A model generated the notes under the pieces. It ran no database searches. It saw only the letters and a program-made list of their open reading frames with translations, and had not been told where the DNA came from. Made by a program: the position numbers and the translations under genes. From the NCBI RefSeq assembly GCF_013167455.1, contig NZ_CP038328.1: 64,000 bases of DNA, one strand, 5' to 3'. Below are positions 4,718 to 31,335 of the stretch, piece by piece. Positions within the stretch are counted from its first letter, which is position 1; every line of letters starts with the position of its first letter. This DNA comes from Escherichia coli O157:H7 (lineage in GTDB: Bacteria; Pseudomonadota; Gammaproteobacteria; Enterobacterales; Enterobacteriaceae).

Positions 4718-6960
<2,243 letters not shown>

Positions 6961-13531: not shown

Positions 13532-13766
13532 TTTTCTTCCTCTAATTATATGTAAATCCTATGGATTTTGAATTTAGGGAAGGCGGCAAGTTTATTCATC
13601 CCCGGGAGCTTACTGAAGTAAGTGACCGGGGTGGAGAAACGCAGCCAACGCACCATAAATTTAAAAGACGAAGGATTTTAGCCGTCCAGATGTTTACACA
13701 TCCATAATTGGCGGTTACTGTATATTCCTCAAGCGCAAATTATTCATGCCGAAGTGAAGGACTTTC
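13532..13766. promoter_or_regulatory. Divergent metE/metR control region
   Basis: 235-bp AT-rich spacer between divergent metE and metR; in E. coli this region is known to carry MetR and MetJ operators; a met-box-like stretch agatgtttacacatcc lies near 13688-13703. Confidence 0.5.
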
Positions 13767-24597: not shown

Positions 24598-25446
24598 ATG
24601 AATAACACATTACTTCCATCAATTAATATTCCCTGTACACTTTTCGAAACTATTAGTTTATTTGATAATTATTCTGCTGATGATATGCAATATGGTGATA
24701 TGGTAGAACAAGATTTTCTCTCACTCGGCCTAAGCGATATCTCAGCAAAAGTTGATCCTTACAGACTTATTAAATACCATTTCCCTGGCCCAGGTTCTAT
24801 TAATGTTGCTTTTAGTGCCTCAAGTTCCGGAACAAAAATATCACAACGTGAATGCACTGATATTTTATTTGCAGAAATGAAAGAACTAGCAAAAATGTTT
24901 TCCTTTTTTGGACAATATAAAACACTTATCGAAGATCTGATTGAACATTTTAGATATGGAAATGGCAGCAATTTTCATAGCCAACAATTAAATTTATCTT
25001 TTCATGAAAAAATAAATAAATATGGTTATAATAGTCCAATACGAATAATCAAAGAATGTATCGAAAATGGCATTAATTCAACTCCCTCGACAGGATACCA
25101 ACCTCTTATCCTGCAAAGCATTAAAACCAAATTACTTTCATCAAGACTAAATAAATTTAATGACTTCGAGGACAGTTTTAATGGCTTAGGAATCAGTGTT
25201 CATGATATTTCAGCTCAAAAAATATCTCTTTTAAGTTTTCAAAAATACGCTATAGGATGGAGTGCAACAATTCATTTTGTAGCACAGGACCACTTCGGTC
25301 TTGATGTAACTGATATCAAAAACAAGACTTACAGCAAATATAGATTTTTTCGCATATGGTTCTTTTTACAACGGCATAAAGACTTTGCTTTCAAACCTTT
25401 TTTCACCAATTTTAACACTATCGAAAGAATCGAAAATTATCTATGA
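24598..25446 (+). CDS. Hypothetical protein, 282 aa, no export signal, family not recognised (cassette gene A)
   Basis: Long ORF in strongly AT-rich DNA (by eye about 30-35% G+C; not computed), where chance long ORFs are unlikely; AAGGA Shine-Dalgarno about 8 nt upstream of the ATG; stop overlaps the start of the next ORF (ATGA at 25443-25446); no N-terminal hydrophobic segment. Confidence 0.75.
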   Translation: MNNTLLPSINIPCTLFETISLFDNYSADDMQYGDMVEQDFLSLGLSDISAKVDPYRLIKYHFPGPGSINVAFSASSSGTKISQRECTDILFAEMKELAKMFSFFGQYKTLIEDLIEHFRYGNGSNFHSQQLNLSFHEKINKYGYNSPIRIIKECIENGINSTPSTGYQPLILQSIKTKLLSSRLNKFNDFEDSFNGLGISVHDISAQKISLLSFQKYAIGWSATIHFVAQDHFGLDVTDIKNKTYSKYRFFRIWFFLQRHKDFAFKPFFTNFNTIERIENYL

Positions 25447-25934
25447 AAAGCAAACTCCAAAAAATTATATTATGTTTATTTCTTCTATGCTGCATCTATA
25501 ATTTATGGACATTGCGTCCTGTACAGATTTTGTATACATACTCTGATGCTGGCAATTCAGTCTTTCTGGTCGTTGATCATCTGCCATGGACTGACAGCGA
25601 TAAAATAAATTGGTATCTGAAGCATCAGAATGAAATTAAAAATCAACATCCCCTACCAGAAGGTAGTTGGCATACCTGGTATGTCATTGATATCGGTAAT
25701 GGCTTCACTGACTATAAAAAATATATCGAAGGGCCGTATGAAGATCTCTACTGTTTCCCGACAATTAAGAGCAATGATAATTGCATCACGAAAAATTACT
25801 TAATGGTTATTAATGAATACCCTTATCGTAACACTCATATTGGTATTAACGATTTTACTGAGTATCAATTAACACAAGAAAATAAAATAGAGCAAGTTTT
25901 CAATCCGCATAACTTTAAAAAAGACAATTTTTAG
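25443..25934 (+). CDS. Hypothetical exported or membrane-anchored protein, 163 aa (cassette gene B)
   Basis: ATG overlaps the stop of gene A (translational coupling); N-terminus MKSKLQKIILCLFLLCCIYNLW has a basic n-region and about 15-residue hydrophobic core (signal peptide or signal anchor); same low G+C as gene A; family not recognised. Confidence 0.7.
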   Translation: MKSKLQKIILCLFLLCCIYNLWTLRPVQILYTYSDAGNSVFLVVDHLPWTDSDKINWYLKHQNEIKNQHPLPEGSWHTWYVIDIGNGFTDYKKYIEGPYEDLYCFPTIKSNDNCITKNYLMVINEYPYRNTHIGINDFTEYQLTQENKIEQVFNPHNFKKDNF

Positions 25935-27295: not shown

Positions 27296-28060
27296 ATGGC
27301 GCATCGGCTACTCATTGGTAAAGGAATGATCACCTTGAATCTCAAACGGATTTTTCTCGCCCTCACCTTACTTCCCTTGTTTGCTGTTGCCGCTGATGAT
27401 TGCGCACTCTCAGATCCAACGCTGACCGTACAGGCGTATACCGTTAATCCTCAAACAGAGCGGGTGAAAATGTACTGGCAAAAAGCCAATGGCGAAGCGT
27501 GGGGAACTTTACATGCTCTGCTGGCGGATATGAATAGTCAGGGTCAGGTGCAGATGGCGATGAACGGCGGCATCTATGATGAAAGCTATGCGCCGCTCGG
27601 TTTGTACATCGAAAACGGTCAGCAGAAGGTGGCGTTAAATCTCGCTTCAGGTGAAGGGAATTTCTTTATCCGTCCTGGCGGCGTGTTTTATGTCGCGGGA
27701 GATAAAGTCGGCATCGTTCGTCTGGATGCCTTCAAAACCAGTAAAGAGATTCAGTTTGCGGTGCAGTCAGGGCCAATGTTGATGGAAAACAGTGTAATTA
27801 ATCCGCGTATTCATCCCAACGTCGCCTCACGTAAAATTCGTAACGGTGTTGGAATTAATAAACATGGGAATGCCGTGTTTTTGTTGAGCCAGCAGGCGAC
27901 AAATTTTTATGATTTTGCCTGTTATGCCAAAGCGAAACTGAACGTTGAGCAGCTGCTTTATCTTGATGGCACGATTTCACATATGTATATGAAAGGCGGG
28001 GCAATCCCGTGGCAACGCTATCCTTTTGTCACCATGATTTCCGTCGAGCGGAAAGGTTAA
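27296..28060 (+). CDS. yigE: Uncharacterised exported protein YigE
   Basis: 254-aa ORF with N-terminal signal-like segment (LKRIFLALTLLPLFAVAADD); matches E. coli YigE as I remember it; divergent from corA. Confidence 0.85.
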   Translation: MAHRLLIGKGMITLNLKRIFLALTLLPLFAVAADDCALSDPTLTVQAYTVNPQTERVKMYWQKANGEAWGTLHALLADMNSQGQVQMAMNGGIYDESYAPLGLYIENGQQKVALNLASGEGNFFIRPGGVFYVAGDKVGIVRLDAFKTSKEIQFAVQSGPMLMENSVINPRIHPNVASRKIRNGVGINKHGNAVFLLSQQATNFYDFACYAKAKLNVEQLLYLDGTISHMYMKGGAIPWQRYPFVTMISVERKG

Positions 28061-28142
28061 GCATTGTACACTCGAGGAGGCCAGACAAACTGGGGCTGGC
28101 TACACAGCTGGAAAATCATCAGATAAATGAAGGGAAACAAAA

Positions 28143-29045
28143 ATGAAAAAAACGCTCGCAACGTTATTTTTATTAACGTGTCTGGGATCATCATCCGCTT
28201 ATGCGGATAACGCTTTGATTTTACAAACTGATTTTAGCCTGAAAGATGGTGCCGTCTCGGCGATGAAAGGGGTCGCATTCGGTGTTGACCATAATCTTAA
28301 AATATTTGATTTAACACACGAAATTCCACCGTATAACATCTGGGAAGGCGCTTACCGCCTGTATCAGACCGCCAGTTACTGGCCGCAAGGTTCGGTATTT
28401 GTCAGTGTGGTCGATCCGGGCGTAGGCACTGACCGTAAATCGATAGTGCTGAAAACCAAAAACGGTCAATACTTCGTTTCACCGGATAACGGTACGCTCA
28501 CTTTGGTGGCGGAATCGCTGGGTATTGAGAGCGTCCGGGAAATCGACGAAAAAGCTAACCGCCTGAAAGGTTCTGAAAAGTCATATACCTTCCACGGTCG
28601 TGACGTGTATGCCTACACCGGTGCACGTCTGGCTTCCGGGGCGATCACGTTCGAGCAGGTGGGGCCTGAGCTTCCTGCAAAGGTTGTCGAACTTTCTTAT
28701 CAGAAAGCAAAAGCAACAAAAGGTGAAGTGAAGGGCAATATCCCGATTCTCGATATTCAGTACGGCAACGTCTGGAGCAATATCAGCGACGAGTTGCTGA
28801 ATCAGGCGGGGATCAAACTCAACGACACGTTGTGTGTGACCATTTCCGAAGGTTCCCGGCAAAAATACGCAGGGAAAATGCCGTATGTCGCAAGCTTCGG
28901 CGATGTGCCGGAAGGACAGCCGATGGTGTATCTGAACAGCTTATTGAATGTTTCCGTGGCGCTGAATATGGATAATTTCGCGCAGAAACATCAGGTTGCG
29001 TCTGGTGCTGACTGGAATATTGATGTGAAGAAATGTGATAAGTAA
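28143..29045 (+). CDS. Exported SalL/DUF62-family protein (SAM-dependent halogenase / SAM hydroxide adenosyltransferase-like)
   Basis: 300-aa ORF with Sec-type signal peptide MKKTLATLFLLTCLGSSSAYA; mature region aligns by eye with the chlorinase SalL: LILQTDFS~IAFLSDVG, MKGVAFGV~CKGVMYGV, IFDLTHEI~IVDITHDV, YGNVWSNI~FGNVWTNI, SFGDVPEGQPMVYLNS~TFGEVDEGQPLLYLNS; GAAGGGA ribosome-binding site upstream. Confidence 0.8.
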   Translation: MKKTLATLFLLTCLGSSSAYADNALILQTDFSLKDGAVSAMKGVAFGVDHNLKIFDLTHEIPPYNIWEGAYRLYQTASYWPQGSVFVSVVDPGVGTDRKSIVLKTKNGQYFVSPDNGTLTLVAESLGIESVREIDEKANRLKGSEKSYTFHGRDVYAYTGARLASGAITFEQVGPELPAKVVELSYQKAKATKGEVKGNIPILDIQYGNVWSNISDELLNQAGIKLNDTLCVTISEGSRQKYAGKMPYVASFGDVPEGQPMVYLNSLLNVSVALNMDNFAQKHQVASGADWNIDVKKCDK

Positions 29046-29055
29046 GGTGCTGATG

Positions 29056-29084
29056 CCGGATGCGGTGTGGCGCACCGCATCCCG
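29056..29084. terminator. Hairpin between convergent DUF62-family gene and uvrD (terminator or REP-like)
   Basis: 10-bp inverted repeat ggatgcggtg / caccgcatcc with 5-nt loop, between the 29045 stop and the uvrD stop at 29090. Confidence 0.45.
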
Positions 29085-29089
29085 CAACG

Positions 29090-31252
29090 TTATACCGTCT
29101 CCAGCCGGGCGTATGCCGCCACCAGCCATTTAATACCCTGGCCCTGGAATGCCACCTGCAAACGGCTATGCTCGCCGCTGCCTTCCATATTGACGATAGT
29201 GCCTTCACCAAACTTAGCGTGGCGTACACGCTGGCCGAGCTTGTAGCCGCTGTCGTTCTCGACCATCGGCGTACCCATACGCTGATGGCTGACCGGGCGG
29301 CTTACCGTGGCGCGCAGGCGCACCTCTTCCACACACTCTTCCGGCAACTCACCGATAAAGCGCGACGGGCGATGGTAAACCTCTTTGCCATACAGACGGC
29401 GAGTTTCCGCGTAGGTCAGCGTCAGTTTCTGCATCGCGCGGGTTACACCAACGTAGGCCAGACGGCGTTCTTCTTCCAGACGTCCGCCTTCATCCAGCGA
29501 CATCTGGCTTGGGAACATGCCCTCTTCCATACCGACGATAAACACCTGCGGGAACTCCAGGCCTTTCGCCGAGTGCAGCGTCATCAACTGCACTGCATCC
29601 TGCCAGGTATCCGCCTGCCCCTCGCCCGCTTCCAGCGCCGCATGGGAGAGGAACGCCTGCAGCGGCATTAAATCTTCGTCTTCTTCGTTGTAGCTGAATT
29701 GGCGCGTTGCCGTCACTAGTTCCTCTAAGTTTTCGATACGCGTCTGACCTTTTTCGCCCTTCTCCTGCTCGTACATGGTACGCAGGCCGGAGTCTTTAAT
29801 TACCCGGTCAGTCTGTACATGCAGCGGCATATCGGCAGTTTCCTGCGCTAAGGCGTCGATCAGTTCCATAAACCGCTGTAAGGCGCTGGCAGCACGTCCG
29901 GCGAGGGCTTTTTCCTGCAACAGTTCACGACATGCCTGCCAGAGTGTTAACTGGCGATCGCGCGATGTCTGACGTACCACGTCCAGCGTCCGGTCACCAA
30001 TACCCCGCGTTGGCGTATTCACCACACGCTCAAAGGCCGCGTCGTCGTTGCGGTTGGCAATCAGGCGCAGATACGAGAGCGCATCTTTGATTTCCTGGCG
30101 TTCGAAGAAGCGCATCCCGCCGTAAATACGGTACGGCATACTGGCCTGCAATAACGCCTCTTCGAGCACCCGCGACTGGGCGTTGCTGCGGTAGAGAATG
30201 GCGCACTCGGCGAGCGCCCCACCGTTGTCCTGCCAGGTTTTGATGCGGTTAACGACAAAACGCGCTTCATCGAGTTCGTTAAAAGCGCAATAGAGGGAAA
30301 TAGGCTCACCGTCCGCGCCATCGGTCCACAGTTTTTTACCCAGACGCCCGTTGTTGTTTTCAATCAGGGCGTTCGCGGCGCTCAGAATGTTACTGGTAGA
30401 ACGATAGTTCTGCTCCAGACGGATAGTTTCGGCACCGGGGAAATCATTGAGGAAACGCTGAATATTCTCCACCTGCGCCCCGCGCCAGCCGTAGATTGAC
30501 TGGTCGTCATCACCGACGATCATCACTTTGCCGGTGTCGCCCGCCAGCAGGCGGATCCACGCGTACTGAATGTTGTTGGTATCCTGGAATTCGTCCACCA
30601 GGATGTTGGTAAAACGTTCGCGGTAGTGTTGCAGGATATGCGGCTTGTTAAGCCACAACTCGTGAGCGCGCAGCAGCAGCTCGGCGAAGTCCACCAGGCC
30701 TGCACGATCGCACGCTTCCTGATACGCCTGATACACCTTCTGCCAGGTCTGCTCCACCGGATTACCGTAGCTTTGAATATGATGCGGACGCAGGCCTTCA
30801 TCTTTCTGGCTGTTGATGTACCACATTGCCTGGCGCGGCGGCCACTGCTTCTCGTCGAGGTTCATGGCTTTGATCAGACGCTTAAGCAGGCGTAGCTGGT
30901 CTTCGCTATCGAGGATCTGGAAATCCTGCGGCAGATTGGCGTCCATATGGTGCGCACGCAGCAAACGGTGCGCCAGCCCGTGGAAGGTGCCGACCCACAT
31001 GCCGCCCTGGCTGGTGCCCATCAGTTGCCCGATACGATGACGCATCTCCGCCGCCGCTTTGTTGGTAAACGTCACAGCCATAATCGAGTATGGCGAGCAG
31101 TTTTCCACGCTCATCAGCCAGGCGATACGATGCACCAGTACGCGCGTCTTACCACTGCCCGCGCCCGCCAGCACCAGAAGGTTGCTGCGCGGCGCGGCCA
31201 CCGCTTCGCGCTGTTTGTCATTAAGGCTGTCGAGCAGGTAAGAAACGTCCAT
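29090..31252 (-). CDS. uvrD: DNA helicase II UvrD
   Basis: Start set at MDVSYLLDSLNDKQREAV (720 aa); Walker A GAGSGKT; recognised as UvrD. Confidence 0.95.
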   Translation of the reverse strand: MDVSYLLDSLNDKQREAVAAPRSNLLVLAGAGSGKTRVLVHRIAWLMSVENCSPYSIMAVTFTNKAAAEMRHRIGQLMGTSQGGMWVGTFHGLAHRLLRAHHMDANLPQDFQILDSEDQLRLLKRLIKAMNLDEKQWPPRQAMWYINSQKDEGLRPHHIQSYGNPVEQTWQKVYQAYQEACDRAGLVDFAELLLRAHELWLNKPHILQHYRERFTNILVDEFQDTNNIQYAWIRLLAGDTGKVMIVGDDDQSIYGWRGAQVENIQRFLNDFPGAETIRLEQNYRSTSNILSAANALIENNNGRLGKKLWTDGADGEPISLYCAFNELDEARFVVNRIKTWQDNGGALAECAILYRSNAQSRVLEEALLQASMPYRIYGGMRFFERQEIKDALSYLRLIANRNDDAAFERVVNTPTRGIGDRTLDVVRQTSRDRQLTLWQACRELLQEKALAGRAASALQRFMELIDALAQETADMPLHVQTDRVIKDSGLRTMYEQEKGEKGQTRIENLEELVTATRQFSYNEEDEDLMPLQAFLSHAALEAGEGQADTWQDAVQLMTLHSAKGLEFPQVFIVGMEEGMFPSQMSLDEGGRLEEERRLAYVGVTRAMQKLTLTYAETRRLYGKEVYHRPSRFIGELPEECVEEVRLRATVSRPVSHQRMGTPMVENDSGYKLGQRVRHAKFGEGTIVNMEGSGEHSRLQVAFQGQGIKWLVAAYARLETV

Positions 31253-31335
31253 TGGCACCGCCGCGTAAAAATAGGTTGGGCGGAGAAGCGCAACGCCCTC
31301 CGCCAAAAAGCTGGGTATATATACAGATTTGCTGA

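Follow-up and report, generated by a model that had tools for sequence, protein, structure and literature searches.

A signal-peptide-bearing DUF62 protein encoded between yigE and uvrD in Escherichia coli O157:H7: a candidate periplasmic enzyme for the salvage of external S-adenosyl-L-methionine

Why should a relative of enzymes that act on S-adenosyl-L-methionine (SAM) in the cytoplasm carry a signal peptide? The question is raised by an open reading frame (ORF) of Escherichia coli O157:H7 that encodes 300 amino acids (aa) and lies between yigE and uvrD in a 64,000-nucleotide (nt) stretch of contig NZ_CP038328.1. This whole stretch is referred to as the window; positions are given in its numbering and residues in that of the 300-aa protein. 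Around the ORF, the window is 100% identical to O157:H7 E. coli genomes. The original prediction, which was made from the sequence alone, placed the protein in the DUF62 family, considered an exported member to be unexpected and took export to imply a different substrate or a periplasmic role. In this study, which was based on a comparative genomics approach, we found the description of the protein as an exported hydrolase-type DUF62 enzyme to be very probably correct. The more specific reading that we prefer, and that we regard as evenly balanced between right and wrong, is that it is a periplasmic enzyme that splits external SAM, or a close adenosyl-sulfonium compound, for the uptake of methionine and adenosine. 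The data show the family membership, the fold, the hydrolase-type residues of the active site, the anatomy and conservation of the signal peptide, the purifying selection and the association of the relatives with import systems and with control by methionine starvation; that the protein is in fact exported, is active as an enzyme, acts on SAM and serves in salvage is inferred from these.

Membership in the family was already known from the family-level annotation in RefSeq, in which WP_000751612.1 is currently named 'SAM hydrolase/SAM-dependent halogenase family protein', and was confirmed by the profile and fold searches. The sequence blocks that had been quoted for the ORF (TDFS, MKGVAFGV, DLTHE, YGNVWSNI and SFGDVPEGQPMVYLNS) are all present in it, and the two Pfam domains SAM_HAT_N (PF01887; residues 26-174, E 2.6e-53) and SAM_HAT_C (PF20257; residues 198-291, E 3.8e-18) occur in the canonical order. 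A sequence search of the PDB returned the DUF62 protein of Thermotoga maritima (2zbu, 1.3e-44), SalL (3.8e-36), PH0463 of Pyrococcus horikoshii (4.4e-34) and the fluorinases (~1e-23), with an identity of only 30-35% to the solved DUF62 members and 30% to SalL. The AlphaFold2 monomer model, which was built from a 59-sequence alignment, had a mean predicted local distance difference test (pLDDT) score of 94.9, and its sole uncertain part was a lone helix at residues 1-20 (pLDDT 64). The target-normalised template modelling (TM) scores from Foldseek were 0.88-0.92, including 0.91 for 2zbu, 0.90 for SalL and 0.88 for PH0463. The mature protein presumably assembles as the homotrimer of the family, in which the active sites lie at the interfaces of the subunits.

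The Asp-Arg-His triad separates the DUF62 hydrolases from the halogenases, which do not have it and in which the halide is held by Y70/G131 (SalL) or T80/S158 (fluorinase) (PMC10491745, PMC4859513). In the E. coli protein, D91, R98 and H151, which are located within VVDPGVGTDRK and TFHGRD, align with the D/R/H of 2zbu and are spaced by 7 and 53 residues compared to 7 and 52 in PH0463, whereas SalL carries Y/T/Y in these columns. The original prediction had pointed out SalL-like blocks; the protein itself is of the hydrolase (hydroxide adenosyltransferase) type and not SalL-like. The residues that hold SAM in the fluorinases are D16, D21, W/F50, D210, F213, N215 and F254 (PMC12080486, PMC4859513), and their aligned equivalents are kept as D30, D35, Y64, D204, Y207, N209 and F252. 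A test for the motifs PxNGL and IDxxFGN found P114-D-N-G-T and L203-D-I-Q-Y-G-N209, with both of the ribose/adenine ligands, D30 and N209 (D16 and N215 in the fluorinase; PMC4859513), present. The inspection of residue conservation that had been proposed with the original prediction hence found the catalytic triad and the SAM-contacting residues to be kept, the exception being Leu267 at the position of R270 in the fluorinase and SalL. Judging from these alignments and profiles, the protein is a hydrolase-type DUF62 protein at the family level and no equivalog of the characterised enzymes.

The Sec signal peptide that was noticed originally was borne out by the arrangement of the N-terminus, which is outside the Pfam domain. 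The protein starts with MKKTLATLFLLTCLGSSSAYA followed by DNALILQTDFS, and the signal consists of MKK, a 12-residue hydrophobic core (TLATLFLLTCLG) and SSSAYA before the D, which corresponds to an n/h/c anatomy with A-x-A at -3/-1; the best 9-residue Kyte-Doolittle mean of the N-terminus was 2.32. Cys13 is preceded by Thr and makes a poor lipobox. The next in-frame ATG codes for Met41, which is within the domain and past the essential Asp30. Between the E. coli protein and its Helicobacter pylori ortholog, 13 of the 21 residues of the signal region are identical compared to 254 of the 279 residues of the mature part, which is the pattern that would be expected of a functional signal peptide. 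Two cysteines, Cys231 and Cys298, occur together in all five members of the closest subclade (E. coli, H. pylori, two Aeromonas and Rodentibacter), and none of the 54 other homologs in the alignment has Cys231; this co-occurrence is suggestive of a periplasmic disulfide. The H. pylori ortholog was also found in the outer-membrane-vesicle proteome of that species, in which many cytoplasmic and ribosomal proteins were listed as well (PMC8756444). The signal peptide of the E. coli protein appears to be real and ancient, and export is predicted.

An exported member is not exceptional in the family, contrary to what had been assumed. Among the 150 best of 8803 cluster representatives (clusters at 50% identity), 82 were full-length, and in 49 of these (~60%) the N-terminus carries an extension that is hydrophobic and 15 residues long or more, in 10 of the 49 with a lipobox. 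The full triad is kept in 30 of these exported relatives, while at least one triad residue is lost in the other 19. When one genome was scanned for each species, with E. coli, H. pylori and other Helicobacter species outside the matches listed, signal peptides were found among the matches listed in Aeromonas, Rodentibacter, Neisseriaceae, Oxalobacteraceae, Bacteroidota, Planctomycetota, Opitutae, Brachyspira, Synergistales, Calditrichia and Fervidobacterium. Either a signal peptide or a lipobox is present in all of the orthologs from H. pylori, Aeromonas, Rodentibacter, Bacteroidota, Planctomycetota, Oxalobacteraceae and Brachyspira. The homologs from Bacilli, Clostridia, Streptococcus and Actinobacteria in the same set begin 2-8 residues ahead of the TDFG motif. 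The presence of the signal follows the type of cell envelope, i.e., diderms have it and monoderms do not. The exported DUF62 proteins thus seem to form a large, old and uncharacterised subfamily of diderm bacteria.

The genomic context of the relatives links this branch to import. For 40 loci of exported and 41 of cytoplasmic members, the non-overlapping ORFs up to 4 kb away from the gene were collected and grouped into clusters by BLASTP. One family of 835-961-aa proteins adjoins the exported gene in 9 of the 40 loci, which come from two phyla (Chitinophaga, Flavobacterium, other Bacteroidota and two Oxalobacteraceae); seven of the nine have a gap of 2-129 bp, and in eight the two genes run in the same direction. 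Two annotated representatives are TonB-dependent receptors, with plug and barrel matches to the FepA, BtuB and SusC models. The cluster looks like a specific receptor family because other TonB-like proteins of the same loci fall outside it. Other large neighbours that were considered as further TonB receptors turned out to be a leucyl-tRNA synthetase, a Ser/Thr kinase, a K+ channel protein and others, and the neighbourhoods of four metagenomic exported representatives (P0121-P0124) had no recurrent theme. As a separate observation at one locus only, an ORF of Aeromonas lacus (L008 6625-7452) that follows the exported DUF62 gene at a distance of 767 bp had a weak match to the RNase T2/RNase I family (35 bits, far below the cut-off) and may be another periplasmic nucleic-acid scavenging enzyme.

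In the cytoplasmic loci, the S component of an energy-coupling factor (ECF) transporter is encoded 13-61 bp downstream of the gene in 27 of the 41 (NF010182, 238 bits against a cut-off of 99), a fused EcfA1-EcfA2 ATPase in 34 and EcfT in 25. T-box leaders were found with Rfam in 8 of the 26 cytoplasmic loci that were scanned, seven of them 4-208 nt ahead of the DUF62 gene. Every one of the eight has the specifier AUG-G, methionine (read at GAA, 0-2 nt, the codon, a purine and the closing helix), and because of this the operons of DUF62 and ECF genes would be induced by uncharged tRNA-Met, i.e., by methionine starvation. An alignment of six T-box-linked enzymes with the mature E. coli protein gave identities of 51-56%, and the VxDPGVGxxR, FHGRD and DxxFGN motifs are present in five of the six. 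A methionine-regulated ECF transporter, named MtsABC in SEED, had already been predicted earlier; there, it immediately follows a gene annotated as 'RNA polymerase delta subunit' (PMC9423846), which is the same mis-name as that of the DUF62 chlorinase PDB 7ccg. Tandem DUF62 paralogs 3-10 bp apart were additionally observed in five Firmicutes loci (L055, L062, L077, L082 and L084).

We propose the salvage model because the branch is tied to import and to the need for methionine, and because the cleavage of SAM into methionine and adenosine is the one reaction known for DUF62 enzymes that have the triad. In this model, the signal peptide would be cleaved after AYA and the mature protein released into the periplasm, where it would bind an adenosyl-sulfonium compound, most likely environmental SAM. 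The Asp91-Arg98-His151 triad would activate water for a bimolecular nucleophilic substitution (SN2) at the ribose C5', adenosine and L-methionine would be released, and both could be imported by the ordinary nucleoside and methionine transporters. In diderms, the substrate would thus be cleaved in the periplasm, in some lineages after a TonB-dependent passage of the outer membrane, while in Firmicutes SAM or a close analogue would be imported by the ECF system and cleaved in the cytoplasm. Of the two consequences that the original prediction had drawn from export, a different substrate is not required because the SAM-contacting residues are kept, while a periplasmic role, namely in salvage, is what the genomic context points to.

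A near-identical protein is present in another pathogen of the digestive tract. After Escherichia and Shigella, the next best matches were hundreds of proteins of H. pylori and H. acinonychis of exactly 300 aa that are 88-89% identical to the E. coli protein. HP0709 (O25413) is 89% identical to it over 300 aa and 92% in the mature part, and the ungapped nucleotide identity of the genes is 83.5%. In H. pylori, the gene, which is located between rsmH/HP0708 and a homA-type outer-membrane protein gene and hence corresponds to HP0709, is apparently near-core; one 90% cluster with the H. pylori copy contains 2579 member sequences. The next relatives in the mature region are those of Aeromonas (76-78%) and Rodentibacter (76%), followed by others at ~65% and below. 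In a neighbour-joining tree, Helicobacter was sister to Escherichia inside a gammaproteobacterial group of Escherichia, Aeromonas and Rodentibacter. The guanine-cytosine (GC) content of the H. pylori gene is 0.43 compared to 0.36 in its flanks, and that of the E. coli gene is 0.48 compared to 0.516 in the window. The synonymous divergence (dS) between the two genes is ~0.94 and the ratio of the non-synonymous to the synonymous rate (omega) is 0.064. These data are best read as an inter-phylum horizontal transfer in which the ancestor of H. pylori and H. acinonychis received the gene from an Escherichia-like donor, with partial amelioration and strong purifying selection afterwards; the direction into Helicobacter is proposed because HP0709 nests in the gammaproteobacterial clade and its GC content is above that of its flanks.

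H. pylori requires methionine and is not known to synthesise purines de novo, and therefore both products of the hydrolysis would be useful to it. The fixation of the gene in the ancestor of H. pylori and H. acinonychis could plausibly have come about through this auxotrophy for both products. It is possible, and proposed here tentatively, that the exported DUF62 enzymes constitute an unrecognised route for scavenging exogenous SAM as a joint source of methionine and purine, whose pathogen version came from an Escherichia-like donor and was fixed in Helicobacter. In a biofilm of H. pylori SS1, the ortholog, labelled salL, was upregulated 2.87-fold together with metI (PMC6212823). Moreover, serum antibodies to HP0709 are part of a gastric-lesion panel (PMC11394471), and a D/N polymorphism at nucleotide 145 of HP0709, which we mapped to codon 49, was a match in a gastric-cancer genome-wide association study (GWAS), whose authors noted conflicting annotations and could not interpret it for this reason (PMC6090961). 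ECs_4744 of strain Sakai is mis-named 'acetolactate synthase', HP0709 is annotated as 'salL', 'adenosyl-chloride synthase' or 'acetolactate synthase', and among this gene, HP0709, SSUSC84_0347 of Streptococcus suis and PDB 7ccg the wrong labels 'acetolactate synthase', 'adenosyl-chloride synthase' and 'RNA polymerase delta subunit' are in circulation; such labels confused the discussion of the H. pylori GWAS match.

Several observations weigh against the salvage of external SAM by the E. coli protein. Our search of the literature found no enzymatic, localisation or genetic data on this protein or any exported member, and nothing on ECs4744. Turnover by those DUF62 enzymes that have been characterised is slow and favours the (R,S) epimer, and one group questions whether they hydrolyse SAM as their physiological role at all (PMC12120602); how much free SAM the gut or stomach offers is also uncertain. 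The methionine pocket may differ from that of the halogenases because R270, which contacts the methionine carboxylate in the fluorinase and SalL, is replaced by Leu267 (Ala in the T. maritima DUF62). The scores against the NCBIfam equivalog models for (R)-SAM hydrolase, NF058624 and NF053629, were 131.9 against a cut-off of 350 and 116.9 against 470, which is why RefSeq uses a family-level name only. In 31 of the 40 exported loci, including those of E. coli, H. pylori, Aeromonas and Rodentibacter, there was no informative neighbour, and no riboswitch reached the Rfam gathering thresholds at the TonB-receptor-linked or close gammaproteobacterial loci. No MetJ boxes were found upstream of yigE or the ORF, where the best match of 10/16 was at the background level. 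Lastly, a TTG at codon 25 could in principle serve as a cytoplasmic start, but it is without a Shine-Dalgarno sequence.

The main rival explanation, which we consider rather unlikely, is that the protein is an exported DUF62 hydrolase whose physiological substrate is another 5'-substituted adenosine, such as decarboxylated SAM, another adenosyl-onium compound, 5'-halo-5'-deoxyadenosine or adenosylcobalamin, or else an adenosine-containing antibiotic or siderophore-like nutrient that is taken up via the linked TonB-dependent receptor. The replacement by Leu267 of the Arg that contacts the methionine carboxylate in the fluorinase and SalL (PMC12080486) would fit such a substrate, but this Arg is also missing from the T. 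maritima DUF62, and D35 and D204, whose counterparts salt-bridge the methionine moiety in the fluorinases, are kept. TonB-dependent receptors usually serve scarce or bulky ligands, the (R)-SAM hydrolase cut-offs were not reached, and another physiological function was argued for some DUF62 enzymes (PMC12120602). Against this, the methionine-specific T-boxes on the Firmicutes homologs tie the clade to methionine supply, and the chemistry demands a good leaving group at C5', which restricts the candidates. A purely binding protein in the periplasm, i.e., a non-catalytic adenosine- or SAM-binding partner of an uptake system, for example, would also be compatible with the adjacency of the receptors, and the loss of triad residues in part of the exported relatives shows that some members of the clade may not be hydrolases. 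We find this very unlikely for the E. coli protein, which, like those of H. pylori, Aeromonas and Rodentibacter, keeps all of the catalytic and ligand-binding residues under strong purifying selection.

The remaining explanations dispense with either the export or the hydrolysis. All of the characterised family members are cytoplasmic (bioRxiv 10.1101/2025.08.29.672840; PMC12120602), and the protein could likewise be a cytoplasmic housekeeping (R,S)-SAM hydrolase of the archaeal or Salinispora type, the signal being non-functional or translation starting at the TTG of codon 25, which would give M-ILQTDF..., similar to the N-termini of the cytoplasmic homologs. This is highly improbable: a good Shine-Dalgarno sequence precedes the ATG in both E. 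coli and H. pylori (AAGGA at the matching distance in the latter) and none precedes the TTG, the 21-residue extension keeps its signal physico-chemistry across phyla despite the drift of the sequence, and it is replaced by lipoboxes in 10 relatives and systematically missing from the monoderm homologs. The Prokka-type labels 'salL' and 'adenosyl-chloride synthase' in H. pylori papers imply a SalL-like halogenase that makes 5'-chloro-5'-deoxyadenosine, in line with the 30% identity to SalL (E about 4e-36) and with Gly152, which aligns with Gly131 of SalL. We rejected this reading as extremely improbable. The triad is missing from halogenases (PMC10491745), and no halogenation by triad-bearing hydrolases was observed (PMC4859513; PMC12120602); furthermore, Tyr70 of SalL corresponds to Asp91 and Thr80 of the fluorinase to Val94, Gly152 is the only match to the halide-holding residues, and the score against the fluorinase model TIGR04507 was 84 against a cut-off of 400.

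The gene is an accessory one in E. coli, as had been suggested from the adjacency of yigE and uvrD in K-12. When 2 kb spanning yigE, the ORF and the end of uvrD were compared with 5426 complete E. coli genomes, 2293 gave a full match and thus carry the DUF62 gene at this site, including O157:H7, B2 strains (clone D i14 and F11 among them) and others; in the remaining genomes, K-12 among them, only the flanks match. The yigE-uvrD spacer of K-12 consists of 146 bp of unrelated sequence resembling repetitive extragenic palindromes (REP-like) in place of ~1.0 kb. The Shigella proteins are 97% identical to the E. coli protein. Between the O157 and B2 alleles, the gene is 95.6% identical (dS 0.18, omega 0.056), which is of the same order as uvrD (96.3%), and because of this similar divergence the gene would fit an old resident of E. 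coli that some lineages have lost, and less well a newcomer. With omega values of 0.056 against B2 and 0.064 against H. pylori, the gene is functional and under strong purifying selection.

The coordinates of the features are collected in Table 1. The distance of 82 bp between yigE and the ORF, which had been given in the original prediction, was confirmed from the yigE stop at 28060, and the two genes may be co-transcribed. The scan of the gap gave no terminator-like site, and a promoter-like site (9/12) is located inside the 3' end of yigE; such matches are no commoner than in shuffled sequence, so that the promoter and terminator scan of this region was not decisive. A functional link between yigE and the DUF62 gene has no support, as none of the other 39 exported loci, including those of H. 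pylori, Aeromonas and Rodentibacter, has a yigE-like neighbour. Downstream of the ORF, the inverted repeat appears from its sequence to be REP-like rather than a canonical intrinsic terminator, and the terminator scan gave no match there. Regulation by MetJ was also considered and rejected, as there were no met-box arrays near the gene or yigE; the metE-metR intergenic region of the same window served as the positive control (17/24). The latter, at 13672-13703, is the best MetJ-box array of the window, with 17/24 to three AGACGTCT repeats, and was identified as metE-metR intergenic by coordinate mapping to Sakai. Near the DUF62 gene, there is another strain-variable islet at 24598-25934, where a DUF3289 gene and an overlapping DUF943 gene lie between corA and rarD in the place of yigF of K-12, and the RefSeq annotation of an identical O157 strain lists a CorA-family fragment pseudogene close to them.

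Table 1. Positions of the DUF62 gene, its elements and neighbours in the window, and of related loci.
Feature	Position	Strand	Remark
DUF62 ORF, complete coding sequence (300 aa and stop)	28143..29045	+	exported protein (predicted) of the SAM-hydrolase type; Sakai ECs_4744; WP_000751612.1
Shine-Dalgarno-like GAAGGGA	28129..28135	+	8 nt ahead of the start codon
Sec-type signal peptide, residues 1-21 (MKKTLATLFLLTCLGSSSAYA)	28143..28205	+	predicted cleavage between A-Y-A and D; outside the Pfam domain
Mature protein (predicted), residues 22-300	28206..29042	+	N-terminal alpha/beta domain (26-174), C-terminal beta domain (198-291)
Asp91 codon, triad member 1	28413..28415	+	equivalent to PH0463 D68; SalL Tyr70
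Arg98 codon, triad member 2	28434..28436	+	equivalent to PH0463 R75
His151 codon, triad member 3	28593..28595	+	equivalent to PH0463 H127; SalL Tyr130
Cys231 and Cys298 codons	28833-28835 and 29034-29036	+	co-occurring pair
yigE	27296..28060	+	upstream neighbour; phosphodiester glycosidase/NAGPA family (PF09992, 3.2e-17); signal-peptide-like N-terminus; E. coli core gene
uvrD	29090..31306	-	convergent downstream neighbour
10-bp inverted repeat GGATGCGGTG ... CACCGCATCC	29058..29082		between the ORF and uvrD; without a T-run
Accessory segment (approximate)	28061..29071		present in O157:H7, B2 strains and Shigella; from annotations and from aligning the window with K-12 and clone D i14; ~146 bp of REP-like spacer instead in K-12-like strains
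H. pylori copy	L004 6001-6903
TonB-receptor-linked loci	L016, L018, L021, L024, L029, L030, L035, L040, L041
T-box loci (Firmicutes)	L039, L044, L045, L046, L048, L049, L069, L075		leaders mostly ~4-270 nt ahead of position 5001

When compared with the known DUF62 SAM hydrolases, i.e., PH0463 of P. horikoshii, MJ1651 of Methanocaldococcus jannaschii, 2zbu of T. maritima, StDUF62 of Salinispora and SAMH of Sulfolobus and Haloferax, the E. coli protein has the same two-domain architecture and fold, the triad, the PxNG and DxxYGN motifs and the Asp and Asn that contact adenosine and methionine. It differs from them in its predicted cleavable Sec signal, its low identity and its scores below the equivalog cut-offs. 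The removal of the inactive (R,S)-SAM epimer by these enzymes is supported for thermophilic archaea (bioRxiv 10.1101/2025.08.29.672840) but questioned for bacteria (PMC12120602), and the cytoplasmic location that is implicit in such proofreading would not apply to the E. coli protein, given its conserved signal peptide. With SalL and the FlA fluorinase it has in common the superfamily, the fold, the proposed SN2 chemistry at C5' of SAM and the glycine at position 152 (Gly131 in SalL); unlike them, it has the water-activating triad, has replaced Tyr70 of SalL and Thr80/Ser158 of FlA, and is encoded outside a natural-product gene cluster. The E. coli protein and HP0709 have the design of the signal peptide and the cysteine pair in common, but their genomic contexts differ, and the latter is apparently near-core in H. 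pylori while the former is accessory in E. coli. The DUF62 proteins of the MtsABC operons in Firmicutes are comparable in identity and motifs, and both are tied to uptake from outside; those proteins, however, are cytoplasmic and controlled by methionine T-boxes, while the E. coli gene has neither a T-box nor a MetJ box. By analogy, the proposed logic resembles that of the periplasmic nucleotide scavengers UshA, CpdB and AphA of E. coli, in that an adenosine conjugate that cannot be imported would be split into parts that can be, although their folds are unrelated and they hydrolyse phosphoesters instead of cleaving a C5'-S bond. In the literature that was searched, no description was found of the exported subfamily, of its associations with receptors, importers and T-boxes or of a transfer between Escherichia and Helicobacter.

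The physiological role of the DUF62 SAM hydrolases is a matter of debate, and proofreading in the cytoplasm cannot account for a large exported subfamily. The salvage of external SAM is a concrete alternative that could be tested cheaply and, if true, would give the family a role other than the proofreading of (R,S)-SAM. In E. coli, the gene marks O157:H7, the B2 uropathogens and Shigella, but not K-12. Establishing its correct function would clear the misleading labels and bear on the uninterpreted gastric-cancer polymorphism in HP0709 (PMC6090961), and it could reveal a nutrient-acquisition trait that is common to two pathogens of the gut and stomach.

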